From Candidatus Latescibacterota bacterium (GTDB lineage: Bacteria > Latescibacterota > UBA2968 > UBA8231), in the NCBI GenBank assembly GCA_965203355.1, contig OZ241889.1, forward strand, positions 1,824,001 through 1,888,000: DNA of 64,000 nucleotides. The letters run 5' to 3'. Numbering within the stretch: position 1 is the stretch's first letter; every line of letters begins with the position of its first letter. Positions 1,019-47,280 of the stretch are shown here, in pieces. Both the position numbers and the translations under genes were made by a program. The notes under the pieces were generated by a model that did no database searches, was not told the origin of the DNA, and worked only from the letters and a program-made list of their open reading frames with translations.

Positions 1019-2020
1019 ATGAAAAAACACATTGAAGGCGTTCCCTTTTGCACCTATCGACACTACAACTGCGTCTATGTGGTGTTGGATAGCCTGTTGC
1101 GCTTCTACGAATGCGAACCCTCGGTGCCCTGTTTTGCCCAGTGGGATTTTATCTATTGCCGAGAGCAAGGCGAGCGGTTCACTATGCAGGGACGGATCGT
1201 GCCCCTGCCCGAGACGCTCAAAGCCTTTGGCATTGCGCTGTTCAATCGCAGCGCGCATGATGGGCAAAGCGCGTGGGATAAAGTGAAAAAGCGAATAGAT
1301 GCAGATATTCCGGTGGCCATCAGCTTAGACGTATTTCCGCTGGCTCAAGCCGGTTTCTTTCCGCGTCTGCGCCATGCAGACCATCAGTATATCGCCGCCG
1401 GGTACGACGACGGGGCCGCTACTGTCCACGTAGTCGATCCTTCGCCGTGGCAGCCTTCGGCGCGGAGTATCCCGCTCGAATTATTCCTCGCCAGTTGGGA
1501 TATGAGCGCGATTGTTGGGGAGGACGAGGACCGATACAACTGGTTTTGGCTAGAGGTGCCGAGGCGAGGGCTGGTCCTGCGAGCGGAAGCCGCGCGCACC
1601 CTCCTGCAGCGCAACCTGCGCAGCATGTCCGCGTCCAGCGACCAAGCGAATCTCGCCGTGGGATTGAAGGGCGTCGAGCAACTCGCCGAGGATAGCGGGG
1701 CTTGGGCCGAGTACGAAGAGCCGTTTCTCAAAGAACGCCTAAGACGGTGCGCCGAGTTGCTCTTGGAAGTTGCCTTGCTCCGCGAAGGACATGGGCGCTT
1801 TCTTCGCCATGTCGCTGAGGTTTGCCAACAGCCGCGTCTCAAGGAGCTCAGCCGAGAACTTGAGTCCATTTCTCAAGGCTGGTTTGTGGTGAAGAATTTG
1901 TGCTTCAAAGGAACAGTCAGGGACGCGAAAAATGTGCTGCCGCGCATCCAGTCTCGGCTTTGTGCCCTCGCAAAACAGGAACGGAATGCCTTGGCAACCT
2001 TGGCGGAAATCGTCGGTTGA
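1019..2020 (+). CDS. BtrH N-terminal domain / papain-like (C39-related) acyltransferase
   Basis: Start re-placed at ATG 1019 (MKKHIEG). HYNC nucleophile region, PVAISLDVFPL and HQYIAAGYDD...VHVVDP His/Asp motifs; helical C-terminal half; adjacent to an ACP. Confidence 0.75.
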   Translation: MKKHIEGVPFCTYRHYNCVYVVLDSLLRFYECEPSVPCFAQWDFIYCREQGERFTMQGRIVPLPETLKAFGIALFNRSAHDGQSAWDKVKKRIDADIPVAISLDVFPLAQAGFFPRLRHADHQYIAAGYDDGAATVHVVDPSPWQPSARSIPLELFLASWDMSAIVGEDEDRYNWFWLEVPRRGLVLRAEAARTLLQRNLRSMSASSDQANLAVGLKGVEQLAEDSGAWAEYEEPFLKERLRRCAELLLEVALLREGHGRFLRHVAEVCQQPRLKELSRELESISQGWFVVKNLCFKGTVRDAKNVLPRIQSRLCALAKQERNALATLAEIVG

Positions 2021-2105
2021 CGGCCTTCGCCTCTGCAGACGTTTACTGATCTAAAACGCTTATCAAGTGGGTTAGAAAGTCTACGAGATACTGAAAGCCC
2101 TAGCT

Positions 2106-3287
2106 ATGTGGTCAATCGCCAGATTTCTACTCCCGATTCTTATACTCTTGCTCGTCGCAGGGGTATTTGTACTATCACAGGACGTTTTTCATTTTGTCTC
2201 AGAAGGCGTCAGTGAGGATATGGGGAGAGCCGACGTCCAAGAAACAGTAGCCTTCAGGCCACTTGAAACCCCCGTAGAGGTGATACGATTAAAAAAACAA
2301 TCGCTAGTGGAGAGCATTTCGACCAATGGTCGGACTAAAGCCTTACTCAAAACAAAAATCACATCTCAAGTGTCAGGAAGCGTTACCGAATTGAGGGTGG
2401 GAGAAGGCGAATTTGTTAAAAAAGATTCGGTGCTCTTAGAAATCGAAGACGAATCCTTCAGAATTGCTTATCTGCAAGCAAAAGACAGGTTGAATAACCT
2501 CCTCAATGAATACGCTCTCATGATATTGCTGAACAGGCAAACAGTATCAGACCGAATCGATATAAGCACCAGTACTAACATAGATACATCAAATATAAAC
2601 GATAGAGAATCAGCGGCTCTGCTGTCGGTACATTCTCGTAAAGAGCGGATTGCCAGCATGATAGGGTTGACGAAAGCTAGGCTGGATCTGAGAAAGGCAG
2701 AGTTGGATCTTGAAAATACCATGGTTCGTGCCCCCTTTGACGGCTTTGTCTCCGGCGTAGCAACATCACAGGGCAGTATAGTTCACCAGACAGATCAACT
2801 GATGTGGTTGGTTTCTCTAGATAGTTTGGTCGTTGAGGTAGGCATCTTGGAAACCGAGCTACGGTTGATTCGCAAAGGTACCGAAGCCGAGATAGAATTA
2901 GCCGCTTTTCCGGGCGAACAGATCAAGGGGACAGTCAGGGCGATAAGTCCAATTATAGAAGAAAAGAGTGGTACTTGTAATATCCAGGTAGAGATTGCCA
3001 ACCCAACCCGGGAAATCCGCCCCGGTATGTTTGCTCGTGTAACTGTTAGCCACGGAGAATTTCGTAGTCGCCTTCTGATTCCCCGAGACGCTCTTTTACT
3101 TCGAGATGATAGAAAGGTCGCATTCGTATATGAACAGGGAGTAGCACGTTGGCGCTATATCAAGACTGGTCTAGAGAACGATCTCTTTATCGAAGTCACT
3201 GAGGGCTTGAGCGAAGGAGAAGATTTGATCGTGTCTGGGCACTTCAATCTTGCTCACGAAGCCAAAGTCTTGTTGGTGGAGAAATGA
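2106..3287 (+). CDS. RND efflux periplasmic adaptor (membrane fusion protein)
   Basis: N-terminal TM, lipoyl halves (SQVSGSV..V.EGEFVKK; VRAPFDGFV), coiled hairpin, IRPGMFARV, GLSEGEDLIVSG. Confidence 0.95.
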   Translation: MWSIARFLLPILILLLVAGVFVLSQDVFHFVSEGVSEDMGRADVQETVAFRPLETPVEVIRLKKQSLVESISTNGRTKALLKTKITSQVSGSVTELRVGEGEFVKKDSVLLEIEDESFRIAYLQAKDRLNNLLNEYALMILLNRQTVSDRIDISTSTNIDTSNINDRESAALLSVHSRKERIASMIGLTKARLDLRKAELDLENTMVRAPFDGFVSGVATSQGSIVHQTDQLMWLVSLDSLVVEVGILETELRLIRKGTEAEIELAAFPGEQIKGTVRAISPIIEEKSGTCNIQVEIANPTREIRPGMFARVTVSHGEFRSRLLIPRDALLLRDDRKVAFVYEQGVARWRYIKTGLENDLFIEVTEGLSEGEDLIVSGHFNLAHEAKVLLVEK

Positions 3288-3333
3288 AGACGGAAAGTCT
3301 TTTTCCGCTTTATTGAATGAACGAATAAGCGGG

Positions 3334-6300
3334 ATGCATATAACTGAAGTTGCAGTTCAGCGGCCCGTAGCCACTACGGTGTTCTTTATAGCAATGGTCA
3401 TGCTGGGAGTGTATTCTTTCCATCGGCTGAGCGTCGATTTCTTGCCCAGTATCAGCGTACCCAACCTACTAGTCAGAACCGAATGTCCTGGACTAAACGC
3501 ACAAGATATAGAGAAAAATGTCACCGAATGGATCGAGTCTGCGTTGAGTACAGTACAGGATGTGAATCGCATAGAATCGGTTTCGCGTGATGGCCTCTCG
3601 CTCATCCACGTCGATTTTGGCTGGGGCAGTAATATGAACATAGCGTTTATCAATGTGCGAAACAGACTGGATAGAATACAGGAGAACTTACCTGAATTCG
3701 TCGAGCGCTCAGTCATATTGAGCTTTGATCCATCCTCAACACCTATTATGACTTTGGTGGTTACGGGTGATCGCGTAGAAAATCCCACAACGGCCAAAAG
3801 CTACGAGAATGCCTTAGCAGAGCTAAAAGAGGTTTCTGAAACAGTCATTAAACGCCGTCTGGAACAATTGGATGGAGTGGCTTATGCTCTGGTATCGGGG
3901 GGGTTAGAGCGAGAAATTCAGGTGATTTTAGATTCGGAGAAAATGCTAACTTACCAGATCGGTTTCGCTGAGGTGGAGCAGGCCTTGAAACAGTTCAATG
4001 TGCAGTCGCTAGGCGGTACCATCCGCGACAGGCACTACCAATTCCCTCTCCGCATTGAAGCCTCATATAATAAGGTGGACGAGATCTACAAGACGCCTAT
4101 CCGGTCCACGCTACGGGAACAGACTATTCGCTTGCAAGACATTGCCCGTATAGAGGATTCCTACAAAAAACGGACTGGTTATGTTCGCTTGAACGGCAAA
4201 GAAGTGATAACTTTGTTTCTATTTAAGGAAGCTGGTGCTAATACGGTTAAAACCTCAAAAAAAATATATGAAGATCTTTATAGATTGGCCGAAGAGTACC
4301 CCGAATTTCAGGTCACAGTGGCTTTTGATCAGGCGGAGTTCATCCAAGAATCCATAGTTAACGTATTACATGCTTTATACTTGGGGAGTATAGTCACATT
4401 TTTTGTGCTTTTCTTTTTTCTACAAGACTTGCGGAGTCTTGTCATTGTGGGGCTTGCTATCCCGATCTCCATTGTGACCACCTTGGTTTTCATGTACTTC
4501 TTGTCCATCAATCTCAATATAATCTCTTTGGGTGGCTTGGCATTGGGCATCGGTATATTAGTAGACAATTCCATCGTAGTGCTAGAGAATATCTATCGCT
4601 ACAGAGAAATAGGGTATCCTACTCGTCGAGCTGCGGTTGAAGGAGCCAAAGAGGTAAGTATGGCGATTACGGCCTCGACCCTTACCACCTTATCTGTCTT
4701 TATACCGTTAGTCTATGTTAAGGGTTTAGCAGGAGAACTTTTTTATAATCAATCTATTGTAATTGCGATCTCTCTAGCCGTTTCGCTCCTCGTATCTCTT
4801 ACTTTTCTACCTGTGCTAGTCATACAGATCTCCCGTTCATCTGCCAATCCTTTTACCTATTGGTCTATGCGATCTTATCTTCCCTTGCCCCTTCGTTTGC
4901 AAGGAAGGAGCTTGCCAAGTAAAGTCGGTACACTAATAGGATGGGTGCTAGAAAATGCGGTTTATACTGCAATCTATGGACTGTACAAGGGTGCTCTGAT
5001 CTACTTTTTTCGTTTGGTAGAGGTACTTATCGCGTCCTTTCAACGGCTTTTTGCCGCCTTTTTCAGAACCTATGAACTCATCCTGTCGACTGTCTTACAG
5101 TACAAGGCGGTTTCGATTTTCACCGTCCTATTGGTGTTCTATGCTAGCCTGGAGATCATGCAACAATTAGATAAAGAATTGATGCCGCTGGTAGATAGAA
5201 AGAAACTAGTTGTGAGTGCGGAATTACCCATGGGAACAAATCTGCACAACACATCTCTGAAAGTTGCACATCTGGAGAGCAAACTGCTACAACAGCAAAA
5301 AATAAAGGCGGTTCTATCTTCGGTGGGGATTACCAGCGATGTTTTAGATCGCCGGTACCATCCAAGTTTGAACAAAGCGATCTTGGATATAGAAATAGTA
5401 CAAGAGGCTAATATCTTTGAAGTTTCCCATTCCCTGAAGGAGATATTCGCGGATTTCACCGATATAAAGTTGGAGATCAAGAGGCGGGAATCTGTTTTTG
5501 AACAACTATTCCAACAGCGACCGGACGTATTTGACATTGAATTGGTTGGGCCGGAATTGGAAGTTCTTGATTCTTTAAGTCGGCAAATCGTAGATTTTAT
5601 GAGACAATCAGATGGTTTTGAAAATGCGGTTTCTAATTTAAAAATAGCTGAACGAGAATACCGGCTAGAGATAAAACGGAGCGTCTTGATCCGCTATGGC
5701 ATAGAGATCTCGGAACTGGTCGCATTCCTCAAGCAGCGAATTAAGGGCAGTATACCTACCCAATTCATTGACTTCTCCGATAAGATCGACATACGACTTT
5801 TGGCCGACGACCGCACGGAGATAGAGCTATATGACTTGCTAAAGCTACAGTTTCCTGTTCAAAAAATCGACGAGACCTCCTATGTGCCCCTAACCGATCT
5901 GGTGACTCTGGAGCCCCAAGCTGGATTTGAGGCGATCCACCGCAGAGATCAAAATCGAACCGTCCTCATTACAGCTATCCTTAATGGACTCGACTTCTCT
6001 GAGGCGACAGCCCACCTTGAAAACTATTTGCGTACTATGCAGATACCCAGCGGATATTGGTTTGAGATCGGTACATTCAGAGGAAATACAAGAGCCGAAT
6101 TTGAAAATCTACTGCTCATCCTAGTGATTTCAATAGCTCTTATCTATTTCATTCTTTCAGCTCAGTTTGAGTCTATCAGAGTGCCTTTAATCATACTCAT
6201 GGCGATCCCGTTGTCGCTCGTTGGAGTTGTGTTCACTTTGTGGGTGAGCGGCAATACCCTGAATGTCATGTCGCTATTGGGTGGAATCGTGCTGGTGGGT

Positions 6301-6618
6301 ATTGTGGTAAACGATGCGATTGTAAAAGTGGACTTTATACATCGCCACTACGTGGAGAGCGGTGATGTGAAGGCCGCTATTGTAGAGGCTGGACGCAAAC
6401 GATTTCGGCCTATCTGGATGACTACAGCAACCACGGTGTGTGGGTTGCTACCCATGGCTTTGGCCATGGGTAGCGGAGACGAACTGAGACGTCCCCTTGC
6501 TTGGACCATCATAGGAGGACTGTCCGCAGCAACTTTTTTGACCTTGATCGTAATCCCCACTATTTATGCGGGCATGATAGGACCGGGGCGTCAACAGAGC
6601 AAAGTGAACAGTAACTAA
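3334..6618 (+). CDS. RND efflux permease (AcrB/AcrD/AcrF family)
   Basis: ATG 3334 (MHITEVAVQRPVAT). GILVDNSIVVLENI, GIVVNDAIVKVD, RFRPIWMTTATT, PLAWTIIGGL. Confidence 0.95.
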   Translation: MHITEVAVQRPVATTVFFIAMVMLGVYSFHRLSVDFLPSISVPNLLVRTECPGLNAQDIEKNVTEWIESALSTVQDVNRIESVSRDGLSLIHVDFGWGSNMNIAFINVRNRLDRIQENLPEFVERSVILSFDPSSTPIMTLVVTGDRVENPTTAKSYENALAELKEVSETVIKRRLEQLDGVAYALVSGGLEREIQVILDSEKMLTYQIGFAEVEQALKQFNVQSLGGTIRDRHYQFPLRIEASYNKVDEIYKTPIRSTLREQTIRLQDIARIEDSYKKRTGYVRLNGKEVITLFLFKEAGANTVKTSKKIYEDLYRLAEEYPEFQVTVAFDQAEFIQESIVNVLHALYLGSIVTFFVLFFFLQDLRSLVIVGLAIPISIVTTLVFMYFLSINLNIISLGGLALGIGILVDNSIVVLENIYRYREIGYPTRRAAVEGAKEVSMAITASTLTTLSVFIPLVYVKGLAGELFYNQSIVIAISLAVSLLVSLTFLPVLVIQISRSSANPFTYWSMRSYLPLPLRLQGRSLPSKVGTLIGWVLENAVYTAIYGLYKGALIYFFRLVEVLIASFQRLFAAFFRTYELILSTVLQYKAVSIFTVLLVFYASLEIMQQLDKELMPLVDRKKLVVSAELPMGTNLHNTSLKVAHLESKLLQQQKIKAVLSSVGITSDVLDRRYHPSLNKAILDIEIVQEANIFEVSHSLKEIFADFTDIKLEIKRRESVFEQLFQQRPDVFDIELVGPELEVLDSLSRQIVDFMRQSDGFENAVSNLKIAEREYRLEIKRSVLIRYGIEISELVAFLKQRIKGSIPTQFIDFSDKIDIRLLADDRTEIELYDLLKLQFPVQKIDETSYVPLTDLVTLEPQAGFEAIHRRDQNRTVLITAILNGLDFSEATAHLENYLRTMQIPSGYWFEIGTFRGNTRAEFENLLLILVISIALIYFILSAQFESIRVPLIILMAIPLSLVGVVFTLWVSGNTLNVMSLLGGIVLVGIVVNDAIVKVDFIHRHYVESGDVKAAIVEAGRKRFRPIWMTTATTVCGLLPMALAMGSGDELRRPLAWTIIGGLSAATFLTLIVIPTIYAGMIGPGRQQSKVNSN

Positions 6619-6630
6619 AGATGCTGAAGT

Positions 6631-9600
6631 ATGATAAACCAGCTATTGGTACGCCGGGTAGCAGTCGGAACTTTTTTTGGTGCTTTCTTAGTTTTGGGCT
6701 TGGTCTGTTTCTCGCTGATCCCGGTCGAACTATCCCCCCGCATTGAGCTACCGCAACTCACGGTCTCTGTATCCTGGCCTCGAACTTCGGCCCTCACTAT
6801 AGAAGCCCAGATTACTGCTCCTTTAGAAGCTGAGTTACAAGGCTTGCAAGGAGTAGTTGATATCTATTCAACGACAGGCGAGGGATGGTGCTGGCTGACC
6901 GCAGAGTTAGCCGAAGATGCGGATACGCAATTGGCCGAGTTGAGATTCAGAGAAAAGATCTATCACTTGCGTAAACAATGGCCCAAGGAAGTCTCTTGGC
7001 CCACTATTCAGCGTACTGTCCCCCAAGAGCTGCGCCAGCTAGAAGACTTTATGAGTTTTGTGCTAGTTGGAGATCGTTCTGTGGCTGAGTTGCGAAAATT
7101 TGCCGAAGACGAGCTGTATGCCTCTCTCTCATCGGTCCGTGGTGTAAAGACAGTAGAAATACGGGGCGGGGAAGAACAATTTGTCGAAATCGAAATAGAT
7201 CCGCAGGCCGTTGCGAGTTTGGCAATATCGAGGTCTATCCTCGGAAGTCCAAAATGGAGTAGCTATCAGCGACACTTGCTAGGTGGCGTATGGGAACACG
7301 GTGTCTTGCGACGTCTGCGGCTGGATGCAGGTTTCAGTGAATTTGCAGAGATACGAAAAATCCCCATTACCCAAACCTTGAATGGCCGTATTGTTCGGCT
7401 GGAAGATATAGCAACCGTCAATCTCCGCGCTAGGGAGCCTCAGCGTATTGTACGCGTGAACGGGAGAAACGTGGTTGCGCTATCTCTGTCTAAAGAGTAT
7501 GGAGTAGATTTACTCGAAACGGCTCAGCAGGTAGATAGGATGGTGGCACTACTCAAAAAAGGTATGCCCAAGGAAATAGAGATTGTCAAGGATCACGATA
7601 GTAGTCGGGATCTTCAAGAGCAAGTTCAGCATATAACCAAACGTATGTTATTTGCCATTTTATTTATTGTCTTGGTTTTGATGGTGGTTTTCAAAAGTAT
7701 CCAAGCTGTCTTTATCATTCTGAGCTCTATTGCCTTCTCGATTCTAGGAGCAACAACCTTATTTTATCTCTTAGGCTATTCGCTGAATATACTTATCTTG
7801 GCCGGTTTTACGGTGGGCTTTGGGATTTTGGTGGATAATGCCGTGGTGGTGTACGATCATATCCATCGCCGCATAACGCAGCTTGACTTAGAGAATGTAA
7901 ATTGTCCTGTGGTTTTAAAAGAGGCTACCATAGGCGCAGTACGAGAGATGGTACAACCACTTATAGCATCTAACCTAACCACCTTGGGAGCCTTTTTGCC
8001 AGTCTTCTTTCTCTCTTCAGAGCTACAACTGTACTTCAAATCTTTTGTCGTCTCGCTAGGTTCAACCCTATGCGTTTCTCTATTCATTTCTTTTACACTC
8101 ATTCCCACTTTTTCGTATCGTGTACGGGCTTACCGAGGCAGAGAATTCATCTGGAAATTTTCAAGGCCTCACGAGCAGAAGGATAGCGGGCAAGGATGTC
8201 GAGAGACTTCGTATGGCTTTAGCCATCTATTAAAGCGAATATATGGTGGTTTGCTTTCATTCTGTACGAATCATAAAAAATGGGTCTTCGCTGCACTGTT
8301 ATGGATGATAGGAGTACCTCTCTGGTTGTTACCCACAGATATAAGTATTCAGACGGAACCTATAATCCGAAAAGAAAAAAACCTTATAAAAACTCGTGCA
8401 GCCTACAATGCCTTTATCGAAAAAAATCAGCATAAAGTAGAATCAGATACATTACCCTGGGTTACAGAAATAATAGAAAAAGCAACCTTTCTTTTATCTG
8501 CTGGATTACCGTTTTTGCAGGATCCATACAATGCCATATGGAATAATAGATTCTTTGTCTTTGCCAAGCCTTGGCTGATTAAGTTGATGGGTGGATCCAC
8601 ATATCTCTTTTTCAATAAAGTGCATGTTGGCGACTGGGAAGGTTACGATTACCCATTCACTGAAGAAACTTCAATTATTATTGACATAGAGATGCCCAAT
8701 AGCATATACATTAAAAGAATAGATCAAATATGTCTAGATTTTGAAAGAAAAATCCTACCATATGAAGAGTTTATAGAAAAAATAAGTACCCAGATGGACA
8801 AGGAGAGAGCACATATTCGAATTGATTTTAAGGAAAAATACAAGAATGATCCTGTTTCTATCCAACTGTACAGATACTTAGTTTCATACGGGAGAAACAT
8901 TGGAGGAGTTACTCTTAAGATAATGGGGAAAGGGCTACCATTTAAGGATATTTTAGAAGGTAATTATACGAACTCATCTATTAAAGTGAAGGGATTTAAC
9001 TTTGACAGAGTTCACGCCATTGCCAAGGAGATAGCACAAAGGCTTGCAGGTTATAAAAGAGTGAAGAATATAGATAGTGACCGCGCCACTCGATGGGAGA
9101 CTAACCAGTACGAGGTAGTCGCTCAGGTGGAACGCGATCCACTGGTGGCTTATAGAATAAGCCATGGGCGAGTCGTGCGAGAAATACAGGCTAGGATTGG
9201 CAACACATCCTCTAGTACAGTTCAAGTTGATGGAAGGTTTATACCTGCCTTCGTGATATTTTCGGGTGCTGATCGCATGACTGTCAGGGAGCTGAATCGA
9301 GTATTGATGCAGAGTGAGGAGCAAGCGCAGACAACTCGGATTGGATATCTCACCCGCATTGACAAGCAAAGAGTTTTACCCAAAATAAGACGAGAAAATC
9401 AGAGTTATGTCCGGTTGGTCAATTACTCCTTCTTAGGCCCTATTTCCTATGGAGATAATTTGCAAAAAAAGATCATAGAAGAAACGGTTCTTCCTTACGG
9501 GTATAGTCTAATACCAGATAAGCCTTGGTACAGCGATCTCTACAAGAGCGAAAAGAAAGAGTTAATGTGGGCTATTTTGTTAGGAGTGGTACTGGTTTGG

Positions 9601-10050
9601 ATGATTACAGCCGCTCTATTCGAGTCGTGGACCAAGCCATTTTTAGTACTGCTGGCTCTACCTTTGGCTATGATAGGGGCGTCTTGTGGCTTTTATCTTT
9701 TTGATGCCTATTTCAATAAAGGTGGATATGCTGCGATTCTCTTTTTAATAGGTATTGGAGTGAATAATTCGATTCTATTAGTAGATCATATTAGTAACTC
9801 CTTGAAATCGCAGACGGGAAGTAGGAAGGAAATTATTGTCAATGCTGCTTTTCGGAGAATTCGTCCCATTTTCATCACTACTGCTACTACTTTTGTTGGC
9901 CTGTTCCCTCTGTTATTATACGAGGATCGCTTAAGCCTTTGGTATTCTCTGTCTATAGGTGCTTGTGGTGGCTTGATATCTTCCTTTTTATTGACTCTGA
10001 TAATTGTACCGTTTTGTTTTCTTCTCGGAGAAAAAGCCTCTGCACCCTAA
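6631..10050 (+). CDS. Second RND efflux permease (AcrB/AcrD/AcrF family)
   Basis: GILVDNAVVVYD, GIGVNNSILLVD, RIRPIFITTATT; large insertion after TM6/7. Confidence 0.93.
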   Translation: MINQLLVRRVAVGTFFGAFLVLGLVCFSLIPVELSPRIELPQLTVSVSWPRTSALTIEAQITAPLEAELQGLQGVVDIYSTTGEGWCWLTAELAEDADTQLAELRFREKIYHLRKQWPKEVSWPTIQRTVPQELRQLEDFMSFVLVGDRSVAELRKFAEDELYASLSSVRGVKTVEIRGGEEQFVEIEIDPQAVASLAISRSILGSPKWSSYQRHLLGGVWEHGVLRRLRLDAGFSEFAEIRKIPITQTLNGRIVRLEDIATVNLRAREPQRIVRVNGRNVVALSLSKEYGVDLLETAQQVDRMVALLKKGMPKEIEIVKDHDSSRDLQEQVQHITKRMLFAILFIVLVLMVVFKSIQAVFIILSSIAFSILGATTLFYLLGYSLNILILAGFTVGFGILVDNAVVVYDHIHRRITQLDLENVNCPVVLKEATIGAVREMVQPLIASNLTTLGAFLPVFFLSSELQLYFKSFVVSLGSTLCVSLFISFTLIPTFSYRVRAYRGREFIWKFSRPHEQKDSGQGCRETSYGFSHLLKRIYGGLLSFCTNHKKWVFAALLWMIGVPLWLLPTDISIQTEPIIRKEKNLIKTRAAYNAFIEKNQHKVESDTLPWVTEIIEKATFLLSAGLPFLQDPYNAIWNNRFFVFAKPWLIKLMGGSTYLFFNKVHVGDWEGYDYPFTEETSIIIDIEMPNSIYIKRIDQICLDFERKILPYEEFIEKISTQMDKERAHIRIDFKEKYKNDPVSIQLYRYLVSYGRNIGGVTLKIMGKGLPFKDILEGNYTNSSIKVKGFNFDRVHAIAKEIAQRLAGYKRVKNIDSDRATRWETNQYEVVAQVERDPLVAYRISHGRVVREIQARIGNTSSSTVQVDGRFIPAFVIFSGADRMTVRELNRVLMQSEEQAQTTRIGYLTRIDKQRVLPKIRRENQSYVRLVNYSFLGPISYGDNLQKKIIEETVLPYGYSLIPDKPWYSDLYKSEKKELMWAILLGVVLVWMITAALFESWTKPFLVLLALPLAMIGASCGFYLFDAYFNKGGYAAILFLIGIGVNNSILLVDHISNSLKSQTGSRKEIIVNAAFRRIRPIFITTATTFVGLFPLLLYEDRLSLWYSLSIGACGGLISSFLLTLIIVPFCFLLGEKASAP

Positions 10051-19377: not shown

Positions 19378-20286
19378 ATGCAGCGCAAAGAACTATGGGG
19401 TGGAATTGCACTCTTGGCCGCGCTATGGGTATCGGTCAGTGGCGTGGCCGCGTCCTCTCTCAAGGCGACCGTTATCGATCGCTACGGCAATCAACACCAA
19501 GTAGATAAGTTCACCTTTCAGGGGCGTCAGGATTTGGAAATTTACGTCCAAGGGCAACGTCGGTTGGTGGAACTAGTCAGGGTGGATCGGGTGCGCTTTG
19601 AAGGGGAACGCAGCGACGAAGAACAGCGCGTCGTGCTTGTGTTCCGCAACGGTGTTCAAGAAGCGGGCTTGATGGTGACGGGTGGCTCTACTTCGCCTCA
19701 CCAAGATGCGGTTGGTGGAGGGAGTAGTGGGCGTCGCTTCTCTGGGGTGACCAAACTGGGGCCGTTTTTCATTCTCGCCAGCGATGTGCAAGAGATTGTC
19801 TTGCGCCACCCCGTCGGCGAGGAGCCACCCGATGAAAAAATTCTCAAGGCCACGATCATCACGATGAATGGCCGGCGCTTTGATGTGGAAAATTTGCGCT
19901 TTCATGGCAAGCAGCGCCTTGATTTTCTTAAGGGCCGCAACAAGCGCTTTATTCCCCTAGACAAGGTGGCGCGAATTGACTTTGAAGACGGCGGAACGGG
20001 TGATGAGTTCAGGCCGATAACGGCGACCTATTGGTCGGGAAAAACCGTTATGGGCACGGTCGAGGCGAGCCTAGTGCGCCTTTCGGGCGAGACCGACAAG
20101 AGCTATTTCGAGCGCGTCAACCGGGCTTTTACAGGTGTCGTGGGTTCGAGTCCATTTGCGATTGGTATGCGCGATGTGAAGCATATTCGCTTTCGGCAAG
20201 ATAAGGACGAGGATGCTGAAGGTGGTGCTGACGACGCTGATAACGCCGGAAACGTTGCTAATGACACCGCCGGAGATTCTCAATAA
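19378..20286 (+). CDS. Exported hypothetical protein with an internal tandem domain duplication
   Basis: Signal peptide; LKATVIDRYGNQHQV.. and LKATIITMNGRRFDV.. halves; acidic tail. Confidence 0.7.
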   Translation: MQRKELWGGIALLAALWVSVSGVAASSLKATVIDRYGNQHQVDKFTFQGRQDLEIYVQGQRRLVELVRVDRVRFEGERSDEEQRVVLVFRNGVQEAGLMVTGGSTSPHQDAVGGGSSGRRFSGVTKLGPFFILASDVQEIVLRHPVGEEPPDEKILKATIITMNGRRFDVENLRFHGKQRLDFLKGRNKRFIPLDKVARIDFEDGGTGDEFRPITATYWSGKTVMGTVEASLVRLSGETDKSYFERVNRAFTGVVGSSPFAIGMRDVKHIRFRQDKDEDAEGGADDADNAGNVANDTAGDSQ

Positions 20287-20298
20287 GTTCCTTGCGTA

Positions 20299-20326
20299 AT
20301 TCCCGATAATGCCCCTTATCGGGAGT
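20299..20326. repeat. Left recombination-like site (IRL), 11-6-11 dif-like
   Basis: ATTCCCGATAA-TGCCCC-TTATCGGGAGT; 20308-20326 is the exact reverse complement of 20568-20586. Confidence 0.8.
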
Positions 20327-20363
20327 ATGCCATGCCAGCGGACCAATCACTATAACAAACTAC

Positions 20364-20392
20364 TTGCAGTCATGAGGATGATTTCCTATATT
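20364..20392 (+). promoter_or_regulatory. Sigma70-type promoter inside the putative invertible segment (ON orientation)
   Basis: TTGCAG(20364)-17 nt-TATATT(20387), pointing toward the CDS at 20604. Confidence 0.6.
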
Positions 20393-20567
20393 CCAAGATA
20401 GTGAAAGTCCTCTACAGACAACGGCATCAATTTGGTCAGGAAAATCGGATGTTGATTGTTAGAGGGCTTAATTTTCTACGAGGGGAAGACCGATCTATAG
20501 AGGCAGGAAGTGTTAGCCTGATGCTATGACGCAAATGCCAAAGAGGTCGCTACCCCAAAACCATCAC

Positions 20568-20595
20568 ACTCCCGATAAGGGGCATTGGAAGGAGT
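20568..20595. repeat. Right recombination-like site (IRR), overlapping the RBS
   Basis: ACTCCCGATAA-GGGGCA-TTGGAAGGAGT; spacer is the reverse complement of the IRL spacer; the outer arm contains the GGAAGGAG RBS. Confidence 0.8.
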
Positions 20596-20603
20596 TGCAT
20601 CTT

Positions 20604-21503
20604 ATGAAACGTCTTTACGGCCTTATTGCTATGGGCTTGATACTGGGACTGACGAGCGGTGCCAGTGCACATATTGGAGACCAAGTTTACCTGCTCTTTG
20701 AGGTCTCTGAAGCCGATCTGGCTGATATTGACCTACGCGACGTCAGCATAGCCGACTGGGAAGATGTGGTTGGTGATGCTTCGCTGGTCACCACTGACTT
20801 CTTTCAGGATCCCACCGTGGGCGACGGTGCCCAGTACGATCCGGCGGATCTAGACTACCGCATCTGGCTGGGCTGGAACGGTAATCTGGGTACGATTTGG
20901 ATGGGTATGGAGCGCATCGACAATGTGTATATCAACGAGTACGCGGGCGGAGACCTAGGCAGCCTGTGGCAGCAAGACGCTATTGAGTTCATGGTTGATG
21001 GCGACCACACCGGTGGCGATTATACTGGTTCGGCTGACGAGACCTGGACCGACGAAGAGAAGGACCTGAATAACAACCGCACGGCTCAGCAGTATGTGGC
21101 TATCGCCGATGCCCCTGATGGTCGCCATGTAGGCTATCTGGGCAAAGGCACCGAGTGGGTCAACTCGCTGCCCTACGCTGATGGTGGTGGCGGTTCGGTT
21201 GGCGACGGCCCGACCACTAACATCATTGAGTTTTTCATCACGCCTTTCGACGACCTAATCTGGAATAGTCCGGATGACAGCGTAGCTTCGTCGCTGGAGG
21301 ACGGCAAGATCATTGGTTTCCAGATTTCGGCACAGGACTTCGACACGGCTCCGCAAGAATATCGAGCTTTTCACACTTTGTCTGGTCAGGCCGCGACTTG
21401 GCGCTATGCCGAGCGTTTTGTTGATGGTCGTTTGGTCGGTACCAGTGAAACAACGGCAGTCGAAGAAGACTCTTGGGGCCGCATCAAGGCCGCTTTTGAG
21501 TAA
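20604..21503 (+). CDS. Secreted CBM9/DOMON-like putative sugar-binding protein with SWGxxK tail
   Basis: ATG 20604 after RBS; signal peptide; WLGWN, LWQQDAIEFMVDGDHTGG, IEFFITPFD, GKIIGFQIS..DFD; ends TTAVEEDSWGRIKAAFE. Confidence 0.7.
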   Translation: MKRLYGLIAMGLILGLTSGASAHIGDQVYLLFEVSEADLADIDLRDVSIADWEDVVGDASLVTTDFFQDPTVGDGAQYDPADLDYRIWLGWNGNLGTIWMGMERIDNVYINEYAGGDLGSLWQQDAIEFMVDGDHTGGDYTGSADETWTDEEKDLNNNRTAQQYVAIADAPDGRHVGYLGKGTEWVNSLPYADGGGGSVGDGPTTNIIEFFITPFDDLIWNSPDDSVASSLEDGKIIGFQISAQDFDTAPQEYRAFHTLSGQAATWRYAERFVDGRLVGTSETTAVEEDSWGRIKAAFE

Positions 21504-21530
21504 GAGCACCATCCTGCTGTTTTCCTAAAT

Positions 21531-21578
21531 CTTTAAGGAGAGGGGGAAGTATTCCTCCTCTCCTTAAAGTTGTTTTGT
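21531..21578 (+). terminator. Intrinsic terminator or stabilising hairpin
   Basis: CTTTAAGGAGAGGGGGAA-GTA-TTCCTCCTCTCCTTAAAG 18-bp stem (one G:U) followed by TTGTTTTGT. Confidence 0.8.
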
Positions 21579-21688
21579 AGCTATCTCATAATAACTTGGG
21601 TAGCTACCTTCCTCGCGTCATAGTACCTCGTTCCTAGTTTACTCATGCTAAGACTTAAGCAGCGCAAATTCTACCGGGGAAAATCGGA

Positions 21689-46332: not shown

Positions 46333-47280
46333 TTGTTGGTTGAGGTGTTGGGGTCGCGTTTATTTTTTTTGACAATAGTGCTACAGATAACAGTAGGCTC
46401 GGCCAAACCGGTTTTGGGGCATTATCCCGAAGGAGTGGGCTACAGAGCCTTTCAATTTCCCGATCATTTGGTTCCCGTCATTGACGGCGATTTGAAGGAT
46501 TGGGAAGTTGTAGGCGACTCCTACGCCATATTAACGGGTCAATTTCACGACCTGATTAATCCAGAAGTTGAGGCGAGCGATTCGGATGATTTTGCTGCTC
46601 GTCTTATGGTAGGGTGGAATAAAGCGGAAAACAAGCTCTACATTGCCGCTCAGGTTCGCGATGATATCCACCAGATTGATCGTCTCGCCGGTAGTACTAC
46701 GATGCTTTTCCAAGACGACGCGATGGAATTGTTTATTGACGCGGACCACTCCGGTGGACAATTCGCTAATTTCACTGAGTTGAGCCAAGAAGAGCAACGG
46801 CGGCGCAATGGAGTTGAAGCCAACCACTTCGCTGTGGCTGGCCCGCCGCCTGACGAGGATTTTTTCGTCAATTTTTCTGCCGCTGCTTGGTACGCGCTAT
46901 CCGATGGTCCTTATACCGAGGCGGCGGTCGAGTTTATAGGTGTCTTGGGAGGAGAAGGAGTGACAAACTATGAAATCATGCTCATACCCTTTGACCGGGT
47001 CAATATTAATGCAGCCTTTCAAAGCGAAGAGCATGTCTTGCGGGAAAATGAAATCCTTGGTTTTAACATAGAGTTCAACGATTTTGACGTACATTCAGAG
47101 CTTTTTGATGCTAAGTGGTCGCTTTCGGGCCAACACAATTCGTATCGCTTTTCCGATCGCTTTGCTGACTTGATCTTGATGCCGCTAGAGGGTACATTTA
47201 CGGCCGTTGAGTCGATATCTTGGGGGCGCTTAAAAGCCTCTTTGCACACCGACCGGTACTACCGAGGAGTGTCAGAATGA
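46333..47280 (+). CDS. Secreted CBM9/DOMON-like protein with SWGxxK tail (paralog of 20604)
   Basis: PVIDGDLKDW, MVGWN, FQDDAMELFIDADHSGG, YEIMLIPFD, GFNIEFNDFD; TAVESISWGRLKASL. TTG start uncertain. Confidence 0.7.
   Translation: MLVEVLGSRLFFLTIVLQITVGSAKPVLGHYPEGVGYRAFQFPDHLVPVIDGDLKDWEVVGDSYAILTGQFHDLINPEVEASDSDDFAARLMVGWNKAENKLYIAAQVRDDIHQIDRLAGSTTMLFQDDAMELFIDADHSGGQFANFTELSQEEQRRRNGVEANHFAVAGPPPDEDFFVNFSAAAWYALSDGPYTEAAVEFIGVLGGEGVTNYEIMLIPFDRVNINAAFQSEEHVLRENEILGFNIEFNDFDVHSELFDAKWSLSGQHNSYRFSDRFADLILMPLEGTFTAVESISWGRLKASLHTDRYYRGVSE

Follow-up and report, generated by a model that had tools for sequence, protein, structure and literature searches.

In fimS and in the invertons of Bacteroides, short inverted repeats flank a promoter segment of a few hundred base pairs upstream of genes for surface or secreted proteins. 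Inversions through sites of the Xer type have been described on Acinetobacter plasmids, where pXerC/D sites that are opposite in orientation and identical in their central regions give reversible inversions by the host XerC/D (PMC9947245). In Mycoplasma agalactiae, the Xer-like tyrosine recombinase Xer1 inverts vpma DNA and so switches surface proteins (PMC2268961), and in the XerS/difSL system of streptococci and lactococci the gene for a Xer-like recombinase shows genetic linkage with a dif-like site (PMC2731167, PMC2965235). We analyzed a stretch of 64,000 nucleotides from Candidatus Latescibacterota bacterium (contig OZ241889.1, positions 1,824,001 to 1,888,000), hereafter called the window, in whose numbering all plain positions are given. 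In it, a short promoter module at 20327-20567 lies between two dif-like sites in front of a gene encoding a secreted CBM9-like protein. We estimate at roughly 60% the probability that this module is an inverton built from dif-like sites, driven in trans and captured in the ON orientation. The mechanism would be of a known kind, because dif-like inversions are reported for Acinetobacter and surface switching by a Xer-like enzyme for M. agalactiae. The elements of the locus are the following:

20299..20326, no strand assigned: left full site, read from the sequence and belonging to the family of the relatives' candidate dif
20308..20326, no strand assigned: left arm of the perfect 19-bp inverted repeat, from the repeat and shuffle search
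20327..20567, plus strand: candidate invertible segment of 241 bp with the promoter and the larger part of the 5' leader, in the same orientation in all relatives examined
20364..20392, plus strand: candidate promoter TTGCAG-N17-TATATT, with hexamers kept in the 26-locus alignment
20399..20603, plus strand: predicted 5' leader of ~205 nt, with its start placed from the -10 box (RNAalifold, 25 leaders)
20568..20595, no strand assigned: right site including the ribosome-binding site, from the sequence and the repeat search
20604..21503, plus strand: controlled gene for a secreted CBM9-like protein of 299 aa (open reading frame (ORF); 71 related loci)

The left, gene-distal site is composed of ATTCCCGATAA (20299-20309), TGCCCC (20310-20315) and TTATCGGGAGT (20316-20326), and the right, gene-proximal site of ACTCCCGATAA (20568-20578), GGGGCA (20579-20584) and TTGGAAGGAGT (20585-20595). 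The 11-6-11 geometry, two 11-bp arms around a 6-bp center with ATAA...TTAT at the inner ends, is complete in the left site, which is also near-palindromic (10 of 11 arm positions). The central regions TGCCCC and GGGGCA are identical, oppositely oriented, and bound the module. The stretch 20308-20326, made up of AA, the spacer and the inner arm, forms with 20568-20586 a perfect 19-bp inverted repeat, so that, as in an inverton, inverted repeats surround a short non-coding segment, here of 241 bp (20327-20567). The repeat search could extend the arms to 22 nt with one mismatch (95% complementarity), leaving 235 nt between them. This 19-mer is present in exactly two copies in the 64 kb, one per strand, when 0.00 were expected from 100 shuffles with up to three mismatches allowed. 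The candidate promoter, TTGCAG (20364-20369) and TATATT (20387-20392) separated by a 17-nt spacer, is directed at the ATG at 20604, and both hexamers are conserved across the alignment of 26 loci. A ribosome-binding site, AAGGAG (20589-20594), lies inside the right outer arm. A previous sequence-only reading of this DNA had described the perfect repeat, the two 11-6-11 sites with identical opposed spacers and identical inner arms, the promoter pointing at the gene and the ribosome-binding site in the right outer arm, and every one of these elements was recovered.

This arrangement resembles the pdif or "dif modules" of Acinetobacter, which are short modules between opposed dif-like 11-6-11 sites, with identical 6-bp centers in active pairs, inverted in trans by chromosomal Xer enzymes and found in varied contexts and orientations (PMC9947245). 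However, the Acinetobacter modules are plasmid-borne and carry resistance or other genes (PMC9947245), whereas the module in the window is chromosomal, sits in conserved synteny and has a promoter and a leader as its cargo. Inversion has been demonstrated for the former (PMC9947245) and is predicted from sequence for the latter. The occurrence in several contexts that is typical of the Acinetobacter type was seen only for a sister cassette described below, not for the window module. In M. agalactiae, xer1 adjoins vpma and several genes are shuffled past one promoter (PMC2268961); in the window a single promoter stands before a single gene, a recombinase gene is absent from the neighborhood, and the sites look like a candidate chromosomal dif. 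The flagellar switch of Clostridioides difficile is alike in having short inverted repeats around a promoter and a recombinase that is possibly encoded elsewhere (PMC12282940). The repeats of the C. difficile, fimS and Bacteroides systems are, in contrast, not of the dif-like 11-6-11 type, and their enzymes are dedicated invertases and not a candidate dimer-resolution recombinase.

To see how the sites have evolved, we turned to the related loci (genomes, contigs, loci and sequencing runs are designated below by G, C, L and X numbers). A protein search with the 20604-21503 product retrieved 71 loci in metagenome-assembled genomes of Latescibacterota, some of them labelled Gemmatimonadota. The conserved leader is shared by 25 of the 71, and these were aligned with the window, giving 26 sequences in which the entire intergenic region is conserved in a single orientation. 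Eight loci (L001, L002, L005, L007, L024, L029, L031 and L069) carry the repeat in perfect form, 17-20 bp long, at the corresponding place, and L066 has it with a single mismatch, which puts the repeat in 9 of the 25 relatives and, with the window, in 10 of the 26 loci. The duplex energies of these ten strong-repeat loci range from -40 to -51 kcal/mol, and those of the other 16 from -9 to -24 kcal/mol, with shuffles at about -12 +/- 3. The spacers of the two sites are identical in opposite orientation in 10 of the 26 loci. They differ among species (TGCCCC, TTCCCC, TACCCC and TATCCC), and the partner site is always mirrored; likewise, one inner-arm position is either G or T and the partner site always carries the mirror change. 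In a tree of the downstream gene (FastTree, midpoint root, all 26 rows, without support values), the loci bearing the repeat fall in both main clades and are intermingled with loci that have none. The distribution on the tree and the variants together suggest an old repeat with several losses and at least ~6 paired changes. Lineages whose proteins are only ~70% identical still keep a perfect 17-20-bp repeat.

The possibility that the repeat is a miniature inverted-repeat transposable element, which the sequence-only reading had kept in view, or another dispersed repeat was rejected. The 19-mer is found in the window only as the pair, and in four of five relatives' genomes only as the locus pair, the fifth having one extra exact copy and one related half-site. 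When the 19-mer was compared with 32 million genome contigs, the sole match was one unrelated contig. A metagenome scan with the 19-mer in IUPAC form returned at least 119 single-match stretches, none of them homologous to the locus among the matches listed (blastn), and was uninformative.

The likeness to dif could be examined in the relatives. In five genomes, ACTNNCNATAANNNNNNTTAT matched 30 times and the reversed-pattern controls 0 times; for a second site pattern the numbers were 31 and 3. In every one of the five genomes, a member of this site family lies between mutL and a gene encoding a 326-aa tyrosine recombinase (Pfam PF00589 and PF02899), where it takes the form of a 13-6-13 palindrome, ATACTAnCGATAA-CAGGCA-TTATCGnTAGTAT. 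The recombinase is single-copy in 59 of the 75 genomes of the order, with 58-100% identity, and the palindrome is present upstream of its gene in 29 of the 30 loci examined. In all five complete chromosomes, the palindrome is located opposite dnaA, 47-51% of the chromosome away (as a fraction of the chromosome: 0.508 in G001, 0.476 in G002, 0.485 in G003, 0.470 in G004 and ~0.49 in G047, with the length of the last taken as 6.6 Mb). Because of this terminus position and its place beside a Xer-type recombinase gene, we consider the palindrome a candidate dif:

L232-L236 and L267-L290, e.g. G001:C1:689596-689623: candidate dif sites, between mutL and the recombinase gene

The 58 arms of the candidate dif sites have the consensus ACTA[ACT][CT]GATAA, which ACTCCCGATAA of the window matches at 10 of 11 positions overall and at all the near-invariant ones. 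In the species of L283 the candidate-dif arms are identical to the window arms, and the candidate dif of G002 agrees with the window 19-mer at 17 of 19 positions. The term dif-like, which the sequence-only reading had based on geometry, is therefore well chosen, and the comparison of recombinases and dif that it had recommended yielded, in the relatives, a linked recombinase and a candidate dif with similar arms. The window locus is not dif itself: the closest relative has the orthologous locus at 4.228 Mb, with its candidate dif at 0.690 Mb, and the spacers also differ. The candidate-dif spacer is CAGGCA or CGGGCA in 21 of 29 sites and the reverse complement TGCCTG in 5 of 29, unlike the spacers of the window locus. 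When this asymmetric spacer is read relative to the recombinase gene, 22 of 29 loci have the CAGGCA-like type and 7 the reverse one.

The pairing of a candidate dif with a linked recombinase gene has an analogue in XerS/difSL (PMC2731167), but unlike that system the Latescibacterota genomes also have a canonical XerD and a XerC-like gene. With NCBIfam models, the dif-adjacent 326-aa enzyme scores 130 and 120 bits for XerC/XerD (130 against a cut-off of 335), far below every Xer cut-off, while the same genomes encode a XerD of 345 bits (above the cut-off) and a XerC-like protein of 315 bits. No tyrosine recombinase was found in the 64-kb window itself (best tblastn E value 0.12; Pfam on 30 ORFs), in agreement with the sequence-only reading, and its proposal that the module is driven in trans is plausible given the conserved recombinase and the XerC/D-like genes of the relatives. 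Correlating the presence of the recombinase with that of the repeat was uninformative, since almost the whole order has the enzyme. A census of the sites found about 2-5 loci per genome that carry them, so a large regulon is not supported. Two matches, G003:4787182 and G005:C175, lie inside coding sequence and look like chance. Single orphan palindromes of the family also occur, by a DNA methylase gene and by a DDE transposase (L249, G002:C1:3473536; L253, G003:C1:3795449), and these neighbors suggest attachment sites of integrated elements that share the recombinase.

The same architecture was found a second time, in five genomes, before another gene for a secreted CBM9_1 protein (26.6 bits; 23% identical to the window 20604-21503 product). 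This sister cassette, which is divergent from a solute-binding-protein gene, consists of a gene-proximal site with a degenerate outer arm, ~130 bp with TTGACA-N17-TAAATT toward the gene, and a full distal site. Three more genomes have the sister promoter and lack the sites.

L259-L263, e.g. G001:C1:858150-858376: sister cassettes; paralogous copies at L252, L227 and L230

Spacer and inner arm are perfectly complementary in seven of eight sister cassettes, which represent five different sequence versions. Such paired changes act at the DNA level and not on an RNA stem, because a transcript from the internal promoter holds only one of the two sites. In G001, three paralogous copies by a dynamin-family GTPase gene have the site-bounded segment on the opposite strand with respect to the homologous right flank. 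In blastn alignments, the flank and the right site match +/+ at 88% and 82% and the cassette +/- at 75%, and the +/- alignment ends inside the two sites. Since the left flanks of these copies differ, they show a past inversion at the sites and not present switching, and inversion of the sister cassette was seen between paralogous copies only, not between orthologues. A break in homology at such a site was found in G004, where two paralogous WbqC-like regions lie 28 kb apart in a polysaccharide-synthesis locus (L203 and L208, G004:C1:2789143 and 2817360). They are ~99% identical over more than 400 nt, the homology stops precisely where arm meets spacer in a dif-like site, and one of the two holds an exact copy of G004's left site from the CBM9 locus.

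Evidence on the orientation of the module itself came from assemblies and from metagenomic runs. An 801-nt query (20100-20900) had matches in 54 of the 75 genomes of the order. A contig break in G036 was considered as a possible inversion and rejected, as it is caused by an insertion sequence (IS) that lies after the upstream stop codon and before the left site; this IS (L255 and L256, on G036:C45 and C19) has the terminal repeats TAGGACTTACGCA and breaks the assembly. For populations, we used Logan contigs, from which rare variants are dropped. The runs that hold the window sequence are mostly labelled sponge or marine metagenomes. One of them, X5, belongs to a different study, and the pieces recovered from it match the window at 100% identity. 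A 301-nt contig of this run starts with the reverse complement of 20587-20597 (11 letters) and continues with 20308-20597, and the first base of the neighboring contig is exactly 20568. In a de Bruijn graph, such a contig is the junction expected of the flipped form, which makes it suggestive evidence for that form. A larger inversion, with repeats near 19810 and 21505, was rejected as the cause of the X5 contig ends because no such repeat exists. A palindromic duplication is an unlikely source of the 301-nt contig, the depth being 195 for the flank and 150 for the segment and not 2:1, although contig depths are rough. The stretch 19811-20307 is uncovered in X5, which we count as a caveat only.

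In the mechanism that we propose, 20327-20567 would be a promoter module between two oppositely oriented dif-like 11-6-11 core sites. A tyrosine recombinase encoded elsewhere in the genome would synapse both sites, and strand exchange in the identical 6-bp spacers would invert the module. In the ON state, which is the orientation seen, the promoter would read through the right site into the CBM9-like gene; in the OFF state, the flipped promoter would be directed into the upstream gene, in antisense, and the CBM9-like gene would have lost it. The leading candidate for the enzyme would be the conserved Xer-type recombinase beside the candidate dif, the alternative being the canonical XerC/XerD-like pair. 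We infer from these features the continued flipping of this module, the enzyme responsible and the position of the transcription start. Inversion is favored because the spacers are identical, asymmetric and opposed, the sites are like dif, a recombinase that could act in trans is conserved, and the paired changes have no wobble intermediates. It is favored also because of the inverted sister cassette, the homology break at an arm/spacer boundary and the one junction of the flipped type in X5. A broader proposal, which we put forward tentatively and at clearly less than even odds, is that the dif-adjacent recombinase, or the whole Xer machinery, doubles as a global phase-variation invertase in Latescibacterota. 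Its targets would be small promoter modules that lie between dif-like sites before genes for secreted CBM9-like proteins, and each module would be set apart by a private spacer, which would also prevent crossing with dif.

Several observations, however, weigh against an active switch. The flipped inner part was not found in any of 24 genomes, of which 20 have one full-length collinear match and four have two same-strand pieces. In X1, which has a depth of 321 and may be the run from which the window came, the locus is one unbroken contig in the window orientation, and so it is in X4 (depth 3). The 301-nt contig of X5 has an alternative explanation, as a strain with a repeat of at least 30 bp would produce the same unitig at k=31, and the left-flank junction predicted for a simple ON/OFF mixture, a contig stop at 20308, is missing in that run. 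The ON/OFF switch of the sequence-only reading is thus backed by the design of the sites, the paired spacers and the inverted sister cassette, but not by the 24 collinear, unflipped relatives, the unbroken X1 contig or X5, which lacks the companion junction. That reading had also pointed to the relatives as the place to look for the repeat and for flipped copies: the repeat is there, at the same place in 9 of 25, and the flipped assembly is not, among 24. Of the 26 loci, 16 keep the promoter and leader but have a weak repeat or none, and the promoter stays ON in the loci where the repeat was repeatedly lost. The right site has one good arm only, its outer arm TTGGAAGGAGT being degenerate and agreeing with an arm of the left site at just 7 of 11 positions. 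A consensus promoter scan called 0 sites, TTGCAG-N17-TATATT having 8 of 12 consensus positions. Finally, the recombinase of the window's own organism is predicted from those of its relatives, and its activity is a prediction as well.

The other points of this kind concern RNA. The ~205-nt leader is conserved and structured, and in its consensus fold (RNAalifold, 25 leaders) the Shine-Dalgarno sequence GGAGU is paired with ACUCC from the right arm, which makes the right arm the predicted anti-Shine-Dalgarno strand. The right arm is kept in loci that have no left partner (L014, L018 and L032), and in L003, L028 and L068, which have no long-range repeat, compensating changes preserve a local hairpin at the left site. 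The RNA level therefore explains part of the conservation. Carried further, an element that works as RNA, without DNA inversion, would pair the left and right arms in read-through transcripts: the left inner arm and loop would join the right arm as a duplex of at least 19 bp or as a loop-loop kiss, altering ribosome access or making an RNase III site. The predicted read-through duplex has -50.6 kcal/mol against -14.8 +/- 3.1 in shuffles, the left site begins only 12 nt past the stop codon of the upstream gene (19378-20286), and all assemblies have the same orientation, as this explanation would expect. We nevertheless hold it to be unlikely. Over the 26 loci, the long-range duplex has no sense-strand G-U advantage and the antisense duplex is more stable in several of them, while the ten strong repeats are without G-U intermediates. 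Transcripts from the internal promoter would lack the left arm, which belongs to a site that is part of a DNA site family including the candidate dif. The sister cassette has the same paired changes even though its two sites cannot share an internal-promoter transcript, and the X5 junction is left unexplained. The sequence-only reading had conceded that the unit might act only as an RNA stem; of this, the anti-Shine-Dalgarno hairpin in the right arm was found, and a sense-strand advantage of the duplex over the 26 loci was not.

Two further explanations accept the sites as DNA elements. The sites may be relics, or rarely used. The module, as a chromosomal "dif module", would then have been positioned or rearranged by Xer-type recombination in the past and would now be effectively fixed ON, and template-switch (quasipalindrome) correction, not selection for switching, would keep the repeat perfect. 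That 0 of 24 assemblies are flipped, that the repeat was lost many times with the promoter left ON, that the sister-cassette inversion is between paralogous copies only and that single orphan palindromes of the same family exist elsewhere would all be understandable. But perfect 17-20-bp repeats at ~70% protein identity and at least six paired changes are hard to square with neutrality, and the X5 junction suggests heterogeneity at the present day, which leads us to view a relic as decidedly doubtful. If the sites are operators, both would be occupied by a dimeric DNA-binding protein, perhaps the recombinase acting as a binder only, and the 241 bp would be looped to regulate the promoter without strand exchange. 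The palindromic architecture of the sites agrees with this, and the palindrome beside the recombinase gene overlaps the -10-like hexamers TATACT / GATACT, which suggests autoregulation. Operators have no need of identical, opposed, asymmetric spacers, yet the spacers change in pairs, and the inverted sister cassette, the homology break at the arm/spacer boundary and the X5 junction would all be without explanation; we regard it as very improbable that the sites are operators and nothing else. Inversion by a recombinase acting in trans is thus the reading that we retain for the module.

A full-text literature search returned no report of invertons or of such recombinases in Latescibacterota. 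What would be new here is that a promoter module on a chromosome is switched by way of dif-like sites, the enzyme probably being a dif-linked recombinase. If the module flips, it would be the first phase-variation switch described in this uncultured phylum, and it would link a housekeeping recombination system to heterogeneity of surface or secreted proteins, via sites modelled on the dimer-resolution site. If there is no flipping, it still has to be explained why, in about ten species, two 17-20-bp sites separated by 241 bp have evolved in pairs. In either case, the analysis provides an order-wide candidate dif with a linked Xer-type recombinase, a second cassette, and a structured leader that has no Rfam family.

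The leader itself (20399-20603) may be a cis-regulatory or mRNA-stabilizing RNA; Rfam gave 0 matches at E<=10 for 19800-21000. The left hairpin was considered as an intrinsic terminator and rejected, as it has no T-run and is followed by ATGCCATGCC after the stem. A terminator scan of 20200-21650 omits it and lists the terminator at 21531 given below. In RNA contigs of relatives, the summed depth is higher over the CBM9-like gene than over the upstream gene, which is a weak hint only. Contigs of RNA run X15, which extend over the upstream gene, part of the leader and the CBM9-like gene, are only 88-95% alike to the window and so come from relatives. One relative's RNA contig skips 20211-20296. 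The features adjoining the module and its gene are:

21531..21579, plus strand: intrinsic terminator with an 18-bp stem (21531-21569) and a T-run, from the terminator scan and the repeat search
19378..20286, plus strand: upstream gene of 302 aa, from the ORF list and syntenic in relatives

The canonical terminator after 21503 means that the switch would control one gene and not the proteins of the type IX secretion system (T9SS) type encoded downstream. The expression "surface-protein locus" in the sequence-only reading was therefore too wide. The start of the 20604-21503 product is signal-peptide-like, and the protein has no Pfam match of its own. It is 29% identical (E 4e-31) to the product of window:46333-47280, which matches PF06452 CBM9_1 with 26.7 bits (cut-off 23.4). 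The name CBM9-like, also taken from that reading, is thus only transitive, being supported by this homologue and not by a Pfam match of the protein itself.

The upstream gene (19378-20286), which lies outside the switch, encodes a protein with a signal-peptide-like start, internal repeats of ~95 aa and an acidic tail, and it belongs to no Pfam family. The internal repeats number three, with a spacing of ~282-390 nt in the gene, and the tail, rich in Asp/Glu/Gly/Ala, varies in length among relatives. Elsewhere in the window, no dif-like sites were found near 46333-47280, the gene for the second secreted protein of the CBM9_1 family; the stretch around it is low in GC (0.47), and a long AT-rich region lies upstream. 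Another low-GC block occupies 2000-10000 of the window (0.40-0.47 vs ~0.58 around it) and encodes a membrane-fusion protein of the HlyD type and two proteins of more than 1100 aa, with a peptidase-C39-like/BtrH_N protein encoded just upstream. This block may be a horizontally acquired export locus.

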